This document shows, piece by piece, positions 52 to 7,254 of a stretch of DNA of 42,799 nucleotides. Under the pieces are notes generated by a model, which was given only the letters and a program-made list of their open reading frames with translations, did no database searches and was not told where the DNA came from. A program made the position numbers and the translations under genes. Numbering within the stretch: the first letter of the stretch is position 1; each line of letters opens with the position of its first letter. Source of the DNA: Bacilli bacterium (GTDB lineage Bacteria; Bacillota_I; Bacilli_A; RFN20; CAG-826); NCBI GenBank assembly GCA_034176765.1, contig JAXFTN010000141.1, forward strand, positions 1 through 42,799. The letters run 5' to 3'.

Positions 52-864
52 TTATAAGATTTTTAATTCTTCTTTTTGTTCGACTTCTTTTATGAATTCA
101 AGAATGACTTTTAAAGGAATAGCATAATTCATAACAAGAGCATCGTTACTTCCACTAGTAACCATACCAAGTAGTTCTCCATTTTCATTAAATACAGGAC
201 CACCCGAATTACCATTTGTGACTAAAGCAGTAATCATCATATATTCATGGCCACTAATTTCACGCACATTATCAGCTACAATTCCATCAAGAATTGCTAG
301 GCCTTTTCCTTTACTATTTCCAATTGTATATACCTTTTCACCAGTAACACAATCGCCACTTGCAAATGAACAAGATTTATAATTGCTCTCATAAGCAAAA
401 TGTAAAATACATATATCAAGTTCTTTTGAAGCAAATACAAATTCTAATTCATATAATGTATCACTATCATTAAATTTAGCAAATACATTTTCGCATAAAG
501 TAGTATTTTCAGGATCATCTTTATCAAAAACAATATGTGCATTTGTGATTACATAATTTGAATTAATTATAAATCCAGTACCAGTAGAAGCCTTATTAGC
601 AAAATTACAATAAATTGCAACTACACTATCAATGTTATCTTTAAATATATCTTTAGCATCTTTTTTATTAGTTGCACTAGATATATTAGAAGTTTCTACT
701 CTAGATTTTTGAATATATTTATTCCTTTTAGATAAAGAAGAGAAAGTTTCATTACAAGAACTACATACATATGAATAAACAGTATCCTCTTCAACATTTT
801 CTTTAGAAATAACTTTAATATTTTTTGATCCACATATTGGACAAATATCATATATGAATTCCAT
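52..864 (-). CDS. Zinc-ribbon-fused trypsin-like (S1, Trypsin_2-type) serine protease
   Basis: N-terminal four-Cys ribbon CPICGS...CSSCN. Catalytic-triad contexts TNAHIV (His), LDICILH (Asp), GNSGGPVF (Ser). Start moved to ATG 864 (MEFIYD) because GAGGTG lies 6 nt upstream; the ORF-track GTG at 873 sits inside that SD. Follows the TIR gene stop by 12 nt. Confidence 0.8.
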   Translation of the reverse strand: MEFIYDICPICGSKNIKVISKENVEEDTVYSYVCSSCNETFSSLSKRNKYIQKSRVETSNISSATNKKDAKDIFKDNIDSVVAIYCNFANKASTGTGFIINSNYVITNAHIVFDKDDPENTTLCENVFAKFNDSDTLYELEFVFASKELDICILHFAYESNYKSCSFASGDCVTGEKVYTIGNSKGKGLAILDGIVADNVREISGHEYMMITALVTNGNSGGPVFNENGELLGMVTSGSNDALVMNYAIPLKVILEFIKEVEQKEELKIL

Positions 865-876
865 TTTAAACACCTC

Positions 877-3460: not shown

Positions 3461-4597
3461 CTACATCAAACCATTTTTATAAAGTTCAAATTTTTCTAAA
3501 TCTTCTTTCGAAGTTTTTGGTTTATTTTTTGCAATAATTACATCACAATCATTTTGTGAAATTAATACTTCTTTTCCAGACTTAACTGATTTTTTATATG
3601 CCTCAGCACGAATCTTGTCACACATTGAAACTATATCGCCACCATTGTATCCTTCAGTTTTTTGTGCTAATAGATTAAAATCAAAATTTTCAGTTAAAGG
3701 AACGCCTTTCATAGCTTTTTTTATCATAAATAAACGTGCTTCAAAATCTGGTAAACCCACATATATATGTGTATCAAATCGACCACCACGGCACATTGCA
3801 GGATCTAAAGCCCATGGTCTATTAGTAGCACCAATTAATAGTAACATTTTACAAGTTTTAGATTTTTTAAATCCATCAACTTTTGTTAAAAATGTTGCAA
3901 CAAATCGAGCCATTTCAGCGTCAACTCCACCAGTTGAATCTTCTCTTTTTGATGCGACTGCATCCATTTCGTCAAAGAAAATAATAGCTCTTTCATTCTT
4001 TTGAGCCTCTTCAAAAAGTGCATCTAATTGTTTAGAACTTTCACCCATATATTTTGAAATTAAATCAGAACATTTTATTGAATAAAATTTTGCATCAACT
4101 TCACCAGCAATTGCTCGTGCAATAAATGTCTTACCAGTACCTGGTGGGCCATATAAAATGATTTTACCACCAGCCTTAATGTTATATTTTTTTGCTAATT
4201 CTGGATTTTTTAAAGGTTCAATTACATTATAAATAATTTGATCTTTTACATCTTGTAAACCTGCAACATCATTAAATGTAACTTTATCTTCTTTAGGAAT
4301 TTCAATAGCTTGAAATGTTTTTTCTTCCTCTTCAGAATCTCCTTTTTGTTTATTAGTTATATTTTTAACTGGACGTTTTTTTACACAGTTTTCTCTAACA
4401 AAAACAAGAATTTTTTCCGCTACTTTATGATATTCAGTTCTTACATCATAACTAGTTGCATCAATTGAAATTTTATTTGCTAATTCGGCTGCTTTTAAAA
4501 AGGCACTTCTAGCACTTTCAATGTCACCTTTAGCAAAATACTCTTTGCCTTGTTGATAAAAACTTTTATACGCCTCTACTACTGATCCATTATTCAT
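3461..4597 (-). CDS. Vps4-like AAA+ ATPase with N-terminal MIT/TPR-like three-helix domain
   Basis: Walker A ILYGPPGTGKT, Walker B IIFFDEMDA, second region of homology GATNRPWALDPAMCRGGRFD. SDLISKYMGES and the PW motif resemble the Vps4/katanin/spastin clade. The first ~75 aa (AYKSFYQQGKEYFAKGDIESARSAFLKAAELANK...EYHKVAEKILVFV) look like an MIT-type helical bundle. GGAGG SD. Confidence 0.8.
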   Translation of the reverse strand: MNNGSVVEAYKSFYQQGKEYFAKGDIESARSAFLKAAELANKISIDATSYDVRTEYHKVAEKILVFVRENCVKKRPVKNITNKQKGDSEEEEKTFQAIEIPKEDKVTFNDVAGLQDVKDQIIYNVIEPLKNPELAKKYNIKAGGKIILYGPPGTGKTFIARAIAGEVDAKFYSIKCSDLISKYMGESSKQLDALFEEAQKNERAIIFFDEMDAVASKREDSTGGVDAEMARFVATFLTKVDGFKKSKTCKMLLLIGATNRPWALDPAMCRGGRFDTHIYVGLPDFEARLFMIKKAMKGVPLTENFDFNLLAQKTEGYNGGDIVSMCDKIRAEAYKKSVKSGKEVLISQNDCDVIIAKNKPKTSKEDLEKFELYKNGLM

Positions 4598-4619: not shown

Positions 4620-5210
4620 TTATAATAATTTATTTTTTTCTGCTTCGATTTCTTTTGTTAAATCAATGTCACTTACTTTTGGCATTGAAGCATTTTGTCC
4701 TGTTAATTTAGCTCTAGCTGCATCAATCATTGGACGTACAGAAGCAATTTCAGCTTGAGAGCGTACTCTATTAGCTGGGTTAGATGATTTCATAACACTT
4801 CCCATTGCTTTTTGAGATATTTTAATTTGTCTCATATATTTAGCAATTTTTACATTTGCTCTTTGAATTTTTGCAATATTTGGCATCTTATTTTTATTGT
4901 TTGCCATGTTATTTAATGCATTTACAGCCATAGCCATATTTGTTGCAATTGAATTAGATACATTAATGATATCAAAATTTGCTTTTGTTTGAGTTAAACT
5001 AGAAATAACATCATTTAATTCCATCAATGCACTTAAAGCAACGTCATAACTTCCTTGGTCTCCATTAACTTCAGCCTCAGCAGCAATATGTGCATATTCT
5101 TGTCTTTTTGCTTTTAATTCGTTGATTTGATCATTGAAAATTTGCATTTGCTCATCACGTTGCATTTGAGCCATGATTTCTTTTTCTGCTTTTGTCTTAA
5201 AAAATGCCAT
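4620..5210 (-). CDS. ESCRT-III (Snf7/CHMP)-like helical protein
   Basis: 196 aa, all-helical by composition, with a basic N-terminus MAFFKTKAEK and a long heptad hairpin region. The Met/Asn/Ala-rich segment AMAVNALNNMANNKNKMPNIAKIQRANVKIAKYM resembles the CHMP alpha3-alpha4 region. Acidic amphipathic C-terminus DIDLTKEIEAEKNKLL. The ATG overlaps the upstream stop (TAATG). Confidence 0.6.
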   Translation of the reverse strand: MAFFKTKAEKEIMAQMQRDEQMQIFNDQINELKAKRQEYAHIAAEAEVNGDQGSYDVALSALMELNDVISSLTQTKANFDIINVSNSIATNMAMAVNALNNMANNKNKMPNIAKIQRANVKIAKYMRQIKISQKAMGSVMKSSNPANRVRSQAEIASVRPMIDAARAKLTGQNASMPKVSDIDLTKEIEAEKNKLL

Positions 5211-6223
5211 TATTTTGTACCCCCGACTTCTAATTCTTCACTAGCATCAATTCCTGAATCCATTTCTTTTTGATTACTTTTCAATTCTTCTTTTTCTTTT
5301 TTCTTACGAAGAAGTTGTTCTTTATAAGCTAAAGCATCTTGAGAAACAGATATTGTTGATGTGTTAACTCCAAATACTTTTTCATCCATATTTTTTGTTC
5401 TTTCAGCAATTAATTGAGTATCTTTTTCCATTCTCTTTAAAATAGATATAGCTTTCTCAGGCTCAGAAATAACTGATTTTAATCTAGACATATTTAGAAG
5501 CGCTCTTGCTTTTCCTAAATCTTCTAACGAATAATCACTTTCTACTACAATCTCATTAGCATTGCTATAAATTAAATCTAATAAATTAAAGCAAGCTGAA
5601 TAATTAGCTTTTCTAACATTGAGCATATCTAATTTACTCTTTAAAGAAGATATCTTACGATATAATTCATTAATACGACGTTCATTCTCTTCTTTTAGCA
5701 TTAAACTATCTAATTCGTTTAAATCTTTTTCTAATGAATAAATATCTTTTTCTAATCTTTGTTCATTCGCTACAAATTGATTTTTAATAGTTGCTAATTC
5801 ATCAAGTCTATTTTGTAATTTCTTTCTAGACCATGTCATTTTTTCTTTTTCGGTAGTACCAATTTCTTCACTATTCATATCACCTTGGAGTACAGATTTC
5901 CAAACATCAACTGAATAAGTAAGATTTGATACACCTTCTTCAAGTCTAGTTACTAAATCTTGATTAGCTAATTCATTTAATTCAACGACTTGTTTTGAAA
6001 CTGTTTCAGCAATACTTGAAATATCTTCTTTACCAGTTCCTACACAATTATCAAGTCCTGAAATGGCATCTTTTAATTCTACAGCTAATGCATCGACTGC
6101 ATCTTTATCTAAATAACTATTTACTTTATGAGTTTCAAGTTTAAAACATACTTTCTTTAAATCTTTTAATGCTTTGTCTTTAAGAGCATTATTATTTTTA
6201 ATTGATGGACTATATTTTTTCAT
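5210..6223 (-). CDS. 337-aa coiled-coil protein, possible second ESCRT-III/PspA-superfamily subunit or adaptor
   Basis: Long heptad-rich helices (KLQNRLDELATIKNQFVANEQRLEKDIYSLEKDLNELDSL...INELYRKISSLKSKLDMLNVRKANY) and an acidic C-terminal tail DSGIDASEELEVGG. GGAGGA SD. Its stop overlaps the next start. Confidence 0.6.
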   Translation of the reverse strand: MKKYSPSIKNNNALKDKALKDLKKVCFKLETHKVNSYLDKDAVDALAVELKDAISGLDNCVGTGKEDISSIAETVSKQVVELNELANQDLVTRLEEGVSNLTYSVDVWKSVLQGDMNSEEIGTTEKEKMTWSRKKLQNRLDELATIKNQFVANEQRLEKDIYSLEKDLNELDSLMLKEENERRINELYRKISSLKSKLDMLNVRKANYSACFNLLDLIYSNANEIVVESDYSLEDLGKARALLNMSRLKSVISEPEKAISILKRMEKDTQLIAERTKNMDEKVFGVNTSTISVSQDALAYKEQLLRKKKEKEELKSNQKEMDSGIDASEELEVGGTK

Positions 6224-6237
6224 ACATTATTCCTCCA

Positions 6238-6906: not shown

Positions 6907-7254
6907 TTATTTCTTTTCAATAATTTCGCAAAGTTGATTTAATGTTGCTTCACTAAGATCATCTTTAGTCAAAGCAAAAATTAATTTCTTTTGCGTTTCA
7001 CTTAGTTCAGATAAATCAACTTTTACAGAATCCGAAGTAGCAGCAATTGCATCACGTAATGACTTGACTTCTTTTTCCGTTAAATCATAATTTTTGCAAA
7101 CAATGGCATCAAAATTCTTTGGAACATTTCGTTTGCCATTTTCAATAGCAGATAAATAAGAAGAAGATAATTCTAGTTTCTCAGCCATTGTTCTCATACT
7201 GTCTCCAGAATTAATACGAATAATTCGAAGAACTTTACCTAATTGAGTAATCAT
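6907..7254 (-). CDS. XRE-family helix-turn-helix transcriptional regulator, first gene of the operon
   Basis: LGKVLRIIRINSGDSMRTMAEKLELSSSYLSAIENGKRNVP is a classic XRE/Cro-C1 HTH. GAGGGGG SD. Promoter immediately upstream. Confidence 0.85.
   Translation of the reverse strand: MITQLGKVLRIIRINSGDSMRTMAEKLELSSSYLSAIENGKRNVPKNFDAIVCKNYDLTEKEVKSLRDAIAATSDSVKVDLSELSETQKKLIFALTKDDLSEATLNQLCEIIEKK

Follow-up and report, generated by a model that had tools for sequence, protein, structure and literature searches.

The stretch of DNA analysed here (the window) comprises 42,799 nucleotides (nt) of a Bacilli bacterium (contig JAXFTN010000141.1 of assembly GCA_034176765.1) and contains seven co-directional genes, the third of which encodes a protein of 337 amino acids (aa). 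We refer to this protein as CC337 and consider its gene, its neighbours and its possible role with respect to the 196-aa protein encoded directly downstream. The initial annotation had described the open reading frame (ORF) as translationally coupled, by TAATG, to a Snf7-like gene. We found the ORF on the minus strand as described, the plus strand of 5210-6223 having no open frame and many stops, and read the junction as ...AAA TAATG GCA..., with one base common to the CC337 stop codon TAA (5212-5210) and the start codon ATG of the 196-aa gene (5210-5208).

The tight coupling is kept across 38 non-redundant loci, where the distance between the CC337 stop and the start of the 196-aa gene varies from -14 to +25 nt and falls within -14 to +2 nt in 29 cases; six loci demonstrate a 14-nt overlap of the two genes. 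The Shine-Dalgarno sequence of the 196-aa gene, GGGGG in the window (5220-5224), is situated within the closing codons of CC337, and in most of the 38 loci (the junctions including those of L037-L066) it is contained in the final four to six codons of CC337; in the other loci it has the form GGAGG or GGGGAGG. As these codons overlap the downstream ribosome-binding site, the C-terminal '...VGGTK' of CC337 is at least partly dictated by it, and hence the extreme C-terminus is not a clean protein signal.

Gene order was compared in loci retrieved with either protein, 29 of them with CC337 and 39 with the 196-aa protein. In every locus with the 196-aa gene that had upstream sequence, a CC337 homologue was observed directly upstream of it. 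The pairing also holds for L067 and L068, whose CC337 homologues share 21-23% identity with the window protein (hidden Markov model E-values of 1e-22 to 1e-26), the partner being 58% identical. Genes for an XRE-type regulator and an SPFH protein are localized upstream of CC337 almost everywhere. The XRE, SPFH, CC337 and 196-aa genes form the invariant part of the operon, in which we observe the pairing of CC337 with the 196-aa protein, their tight junction, and selective constraint.

CC337 is a real gene under purifying selection, as the ratio of non-synonymous to synonymous substitution rates (dN/dS), calculated for the window gene and its L001 copy (94% identity), equals 0.054; this is fourfold higher than the ratio for the 196-aa gene (0.013). 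The 1.28-Mb window genome has one copy of the gene, which occurs in only two of the 151 sampled genomes of the same order and is hence an accessory one. A word-based search yielded at least 257 homologues at E <= 1e-3, and a HMMER search covering all of 1.84 billion cluster representatives yielded 122 matches, approximately 60 of them full-length proteins of about 330 aa, with both halves of CC337 always occurring together. Full-length CC337 is present in about 40 genomes from one-genome-per-species collections. The hosts are mostly gut Clostridia, together with some small-genome Bacilli (Acholeplasmatales, Anaeroplasma), one Elusimicrobiaceae bin and one Bacteroidaceae bin. No relative was found in the IMG/VR viral contigs, and a phage origin was dropped; a BLAST cluster joining CC337 with TIR proteins proved to be an artefact of length filtering.

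Searches of Pfam, NCBIfam, PHROGs and PADLOC with CC337 produced coiled-coil noise only, including the sole match in PADLOC-DB v2, the JetC coiled coil (E = 0.019). Among PDB sequences (phmmer and two profile searches) just designed proteins, keratin, SYNZIP and HA2 were retrieved, and a search of the ESM Atlas returned hypothetical clusters, probably CC337's own. As far as sequence comparison goes, CC337 founds a small undescribed all-helical family. Taken alone it is an uncharacterised helical protein, and its function has to be read from the context. The features of CC337 and its neighbours are listed in Table 1.

Table 1. Features of the CC337 gene and protein and of the surrounding operon (window coordinates).
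Feature	Position	Strand	Description
CC337 coding sequence	5210..6223	-	337 aa and stop codon; from reading of the ORF, homologues and dN/dS
N-terminal domain, residues 1-117	5873..6223	-	helices 8-30, 40-58, 69-85 and 91-113
Long helical hairpin, residues 118-227	5543..5872	-	helices 118-177 and 181-227; core pLDDT 86-94
Residues 228-294	5342..5542	-	short helices 233-250, helix 255-283, low-confidence linker 284-293
C-terminal helix, residues 295-324	5252..5341	-	conserved, amphipathic, polybasic; consensus AL.YKE.L..K...KE
Variable acidic tail, residues 325-337 and stop	5210..5251	-	pLDDT below 50, disordered; holds GGGGG and the TAATG overlap (5212-5208)
Shine-Dalgarno GGAGG of CC337	6232..6236	-	9 nt upstream of the ATG, 1 nt past the SPFH stop codon; read directly
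196-aa gene	4620..5210	-	directly downstream of CC337; ESCRT-III-like at fold level; 58-98% identity across loci
SPFH protein, 217 aa	6238..6891	-	directly upstream of CC337; Pfam Band_7_1, E = 5.6e-6, above the Pfam cut-off
XRE-type HTH regulator	6907-7254	-	first of the seven genes
AAA ATPase	3461-4597	-	full-length alignment to NCBIfam CdvC, below the model cut-off
Zinc-ribbon/TIR protein, 856 aa	877-3447	-	weak TPR-type matches; hydrophobic C-terminal stretch by eye
Zinc-ribbon/trypsin-like protease	52-873	-	last of the seven genes

The structure of CC337 was predicted with AlphaFold2 as a full-length monomer from a 34-sequence alignment (mean predicted local distance difference test score, pLDDT, of 77), and conservation was assessed in a 47-sequence alignment with identities down to 17%. 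The model is wholly helical, with no beta strand, and the protein has no transmembrane segment (the top 19-residue Kyte-Doolittle mean is 0.91). The N-terminal domain carries a conserved N-terminal peptide, KKYxPSxKxNN, and the GTGxE(N/D) loop at residues 62-67, which is among the most conserved elements of the protein. The initial annotation had recognised no motif in the N-terminal ~130 aa, and in our searches this part (115-130 aa) likewise matched no known family. The KKYxPSxKxNN peptide is missing in the TIR-less loci L067 and L068, but also in the TIR-bearing L063 and L064, and thus we make no claim that it tracks the presence of the TIR gene.

The long two-helix hairpin proposed earlier for the C-terminal two-thirds of the protein is seen in the model. 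Strong conservation is seen at its polar tip, ExNER, and in the NYSxC..LLD.IY block. Cys211 (5591-5593), belonging to the NYSxC motif in the second hairpin helix, is kept in more than 90% of the 47 sequences, which is unusual for a cytoplasmic coiled coil. Helix 255-283 is predicted to pack back onto the hairpin, yielding a three-helix module; Pro255 is near-invariant, and Leu262 is also among the conservation peaks. The C-terminal helix 295-324 is a candidate docking helix. The two helices mentioned in the initial annotation, together with its Lys-rich stretch and acidic tail, are all present in the translation; its description of this region as heptad-rich is carried by the predicted long helices, whereas a simple measure of 3.5-residue periodicity gave a moderate signal only. 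A ClyA/AhlC-type pore-forming toxin, which appeared in weak rows of the Foldseek structure search, was rejected as CC337 has no hydrophobic segment and its hairpin tip is polar.

The 196-aa partner had been called Snf7-like, which is correct at the level of the fold. Although its model, also a full-length monomer, is weaker than that of CC337 (pLDDT 62), a search over 48,161 PDB representatives placed members of the ESCRT-III superfamily in 12 of the top 50 rows (Snf7, Shrub, CHMP4B, CHMP2A-CHMP3, Asgard ESCRT-IIIB, PspA, Vipp1, IST1). The Foldseek list is dominated by the same superfamily, the ESM Atlas ties the protein to Snf7 and PspA clusters, and its sequence starts with a PspA-like MAFFKTK; at the same time, it has no match to Pfam Snf7 or PspA. 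The Pfam PspA_IM30 model had no match in the window genome (G000; 1.28 Mb, 97% complete) or in five other hosts of the operon (G061-G065), and the Snf7 model, among these hosts run on the window genome only, had no match there. In these genomes the 196-aa protein may be the sole ESCRT-III-like protein. In wider samples, the Snf7 model had no match in 301 Bacillota genomes, and PspA genes, sought in 61 genomes of the window's phylum, were not found.

The initial annotation had also suggested that CC337 itself is an ESCRT-III/PspA-type subunit, such as a Vps20- or CdvB-type paralogue. In this case CC337 would be a very divergent member of the superfamily, with alpha1-alpha5 at residues 118-324 and a 115-aa N-terminal extension, that co-polymerises with the 196-aa protein, and paired subunits are indeed common in known ESCRT-III systems. 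The model contains a hairpin followed by helices in the order of alpha3, alpha4 and alpha5 (118-177, 181-227, 233-250, 255-283 and 295-324), this being an agreement of topology only. The helices in 118-324, of about 60, 70 (with breaks), 29 and 30 residues, are close in length to alpha1, alpha2+3, alpha4 and alpha5 of PspA. In one run of hhalign the hairpin tips of CC337 and PspA were aligned in register, with a probability of 5%.

This signal, however, does not withstand larger comparisons. The hhalign probability for CC337 against six PspA sequences was 20%, then 5% in the run with the tips in register, while against an 84-sequence PspA alignment it was 0.7%, under the reversed-sequence controls at 1.7-2.4%. 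Thus, the early signal reflects composition and periodicity rather than homology, and the lead was rejected as coiled-coil noise. Against the family of the 196-aa protein the probability was 0.2%, hence no detectable paralogy. The Pfam models Snf7 (PF03357) and PspA_IM30 (PF04012) had no match in CC337 at E <= 1 or in any of the 47 family members at E <= 0.1. As the fold-supported 196-aa neighbour fails such profile tests too, their sensitivity for this superfamily is low, and a negative outcome does not exclude CC337 from it.

Structural comparisons are ambiguous. No ESCRT-III chain was found in the Foldseek top 50 of the CC337 model, which consisted instead of elongated helical bundles, whereas the list for the 196-aa protein is full of such chains. 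In the wide PDB structure search, the superfamily occupied two of the top 50 rows for CC337, compared with 12 for its neighbour, and all of these structural matches of CC337 scored below about 13, which the tool gives as its noise level for helical folds. Directly before the hairpin there is no short membrane-binding motif; its place is taken by the conserved 115-aa four-helix domain, whose N-terminus is polar and basic. CC337 also lacks the split into a basic hairpin and an acidic tail, and in our own reading of the sequence the C-terminal helix had no in-register fit to the MIM1 consensus. On the predicted structure, the hairpin appears to be real and the helix order compatible with ESCRT-III, but membership of CC337 in the superfamily is not supported, and we consider a co-polymerising subunit rather unlikely. 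The initial annotation had named a generic unrelated coiled coil, for instance a TelA-like one, as the outcome contradicting its proposal. The predicted fold is generic; the TelA model (PF05816) was absent both from the matches of the window protein at E <= 1 and from the best 25 of the 107 families weakly matched by the 47 members.

While the core is conserved, the genes around it vary. Among the genes downstream of the core are those for zinc-ribbon TIR proteins ranging from 460 to 2285 aa. An AbiH gene (E = 1e-51) follows the 196-aa gene in two loci (L007:4919-5857 and L062:576-1514), a RuvB-like AAA domain fused to a RiboL-PSP HEPN domain replaces the TIR gene in L067 (6158-7789), and L024 (5110-6111) has a weak PIN-like match under the Pfam cut-off. 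The protease is also among the variable downstream genes. AAA ATPases downstream of the core are of two types, both present in tandem in L017. The second type (L004:9599-10876) is approximately 40% identical to the window ATPase from residue 105 on, scores 24.5 bits against Pfam Vps4_C (cut-off 21.3), and carries a separate helical region of approximately 150 aa at its N-terminus.

The SPFH protein is itself of variable length. In many loci it comprises 450-855 aa and is extended at its C-terminus by approximately 280 aa of helical sequence (L013:6493-7983, L016:6402-7985, L023:5422-7986, L025:5841-7973 and others), which matches no Pfam family and demonstrates only a weak apolipoprotein-like match. 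The window and about ten other loci encode a bare SPFH domain of 217-256 aa, and L006 encodes the extension as a gene of its own.

The operon in the window is flanked by housekeeping genes (asparaginase, bioY and proS). In several other loci it adjoins Mob_Pre (Pfam) and serine-recombinase-like genes, the latter judged by their N-terminal sequences only (L013:4096-5061 on the minus strand, L010:8129-9688, L024:2-1300), and these neighbours suggest carriage on mobile elements. A preserved core, exchangeable TIR, HEPN and Abi effectors, patchy spread and mobile neighbours are typical of conflict and defence systems, and in this sense the operon is defence-like. Our literature search found no description of it.

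One protein joins CC337 to a putative effector domain directly. P0155 (470 aa; L149:8001-9410), from a Clostridium metagenome-assembled genome, consists of a TIR_2 domain (residues 5-109, E = 5e-13) fused to a complete region of the CC337 family (residues 160-463, profile E = 1e-46), in which the hairpin tip, the Pro motif and the NY..C..LD.IY block are all retained. Neither an SPFH nor a 196-aa gene was found within approximately 6-8 kb of P0155, and no AAA gene nearby. Two further loci, L150 and L151, encode related TIR domains with other C-terminal regions. This single observation hints that the CC337 module and TIR domains are physically linked, and also that the module may act, and perhaps oligomerise, alone.

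If the latter were the general case, CC337 would be a self-assembling BAR-like or IncA-like scaffold for the SPFH or TIR protein, for example one that clusters TIR domains, and its adjacency to the 196-aa gene would reflect co-expression. The existence of a lone fusion with no ESCRT-III-like gene agrees with this possibility, as does the activation of TIR NADases by higher-order assembly. However, no Pfam BAR family was matched among the 47 members, and the fusion is known from one contig, as against about 40 genomes in which CC337 is invariably paired with the 196-aa protein. Such a scaffold seems improbable.

Alternatively, CC337 could be a holdase, or negative regulator, that caps the nascent ESCRT-III-like subunit until it is released by membrane damage, by the operon protease or by the AAA ATPase. 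Translational coupling and invariant pairing would be expected for a protein of this kind, chaperone-like partners (CesT/Tir-like, Band-7, TPM) recur beside PspA (PMC11237479), and both the trypsin-like protease and the AAA ATPase are frequent in the operon. Against this reading, at several loci neither of these two releasing factors was found in the fetched sequence, which in some cases ended at a contig edge, and the sequence of CC337 gives nothing to tell an inhibitor from a nucleator. We regard a dedicated holdase as having a low probability.

The reading that we tentatively prefer, at somewhat less than an even chance, is that CC337 is a soluble protein, belongs obligatorily to the core of a rare and mobile operon of defence-like type, and acts as an adaptor or nucleator of the 196-aa protein. 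Several observations argue for it: the pairing is invariant even where CC337 has diverged to 21-23% identity; the coupling is conserved, with the Shine-Dalgarno sequence of the partner lying within CC337 codons in most loci; the core is conserved while the periphery varies; the TIR-CC337 fusion exists; dN/dS of CC337 is four times that of the 196-aa gene; and the distribution is accessory, with mobile-type neighbours in some loci. Two analogies may be added. The gene that immediately precedes ESCRT-III in archaeal ESCRT loci usually codes for an adaptor, such as CdvA or winged-helix/coiled-coil proteins (PMC10936438), and in B. subtilis the SPFH protein YdjI is required for the localization of PspA, according to passages in which PMC10936438 and PMC11237479 cite this result.

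Under the adaptor reading, CC337 and the 196-aa protein would be made together through translational coupling. The long hairpin and the basic C-terminal helix would bind the ESCRT-III-like subunit, either templating the polymer or holding the subunit soluble, and the four-helix bundle at the N-terminus would link this assembly both with the SPFH platform and with TIR and other effectors. We infer all the binding steps of CC337 as well as the direction of regulation. In a more specific variant, the hairpin of CC337 would seed the 196-aa polymer on the SPFH platform, and the bundle would recruit TIR, HEPN or AbiH proteins, CC337 being a divergent nucleator of the ESCRT-III superfamily or an analogue of one. 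Were this the case, filament assembly at a damaged or phage-attacked membrane would trigger cell-suicide enzymes; we consider this variant unlikely.

Several points weigh against the adaptor reading. The predicted fold of CC337 is generic and by itself gives no pointer to an adaptor role. Adjacency and coupling indicate co-expression and do not prove binding. The defence component is derived from context, as no PADLOC model covers CC337 or the SPFH and TIR proteins of this operon. Finally, P0155 is a singleton on one contig, and, as it stands alone, the CC337 module can presumably work without the ESCRT-III-like partner.

The operon unites an ESCRT-III-like protein, a Vps4/CdvC-like ATPase, an SPFH protein and immune-type effectors, while, according to a 2025 review, a Vps4-like ATPase working on ESCRT-III appears to be absent from bacteria (PMC7619361). 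CC337 is the only one of the four invariant genes with no recognisable family. Identifying its binding partners would reveal what nucleates or restrains the module and what links TIR, HEPN or AbiH proteins to a membrane-remodelling polymer, and would provide a name and a model for a domain that is now unannotated in genomes of gut Firmicutes.

Among known systems, the ESCRT-III superfamily itself (PspA, Vipp1/IM30, Snf7/CHMP, CdvB) differs from CC337, which demonstrates no signal above the controls, no structural matches exceeding those to unrelated hairpins, and a 115-aa bundle instead of the membrane motif; the ESCRT-III-like protein of the operon is the 196-aa neighbour. BAR and F-BAR domains and the chlamydial SNARE-like protein IncA are also among the systems nearest to CC337. 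The B. subtilis pspA-ydjGHI operon similarly combines a Band_7_1 SPFH protein (YdjI), a protein of the ESCRT-III superfamily and accessory proteins, but of the latter YdjG has zinc ribbons and YdjH is a TPM-domain membrane protein, and CC337 resembles neither. The archaeal ESCRT adaptors (CdvA, the winged-helix and coiled-coil arCOG11741, the Vps28-C-like bundle and the steadiness-box hairpin) occupy the same upstream gene position as CC337. Helical-bundle and helical-hairpin modules are typical of these adaptors (Makarova et al. 2024, PMC10936438), and CC337, likened to them by description, also combines a helical bundle with a helical hairpin, although its model has neither the N-terminal PRC beta-barrel of CdvA, nor a winged helix, nor any beta structure. 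The archaeal operons also contain a Vps4/CdvC-like AAA ATPase, as is the case here, and those of the 'Meth_adaptin' type an SPFH protein, whereas the operon described here resides in a bacterial host and is accompanied by effectors of the TIR, HEPN or AbiH type.

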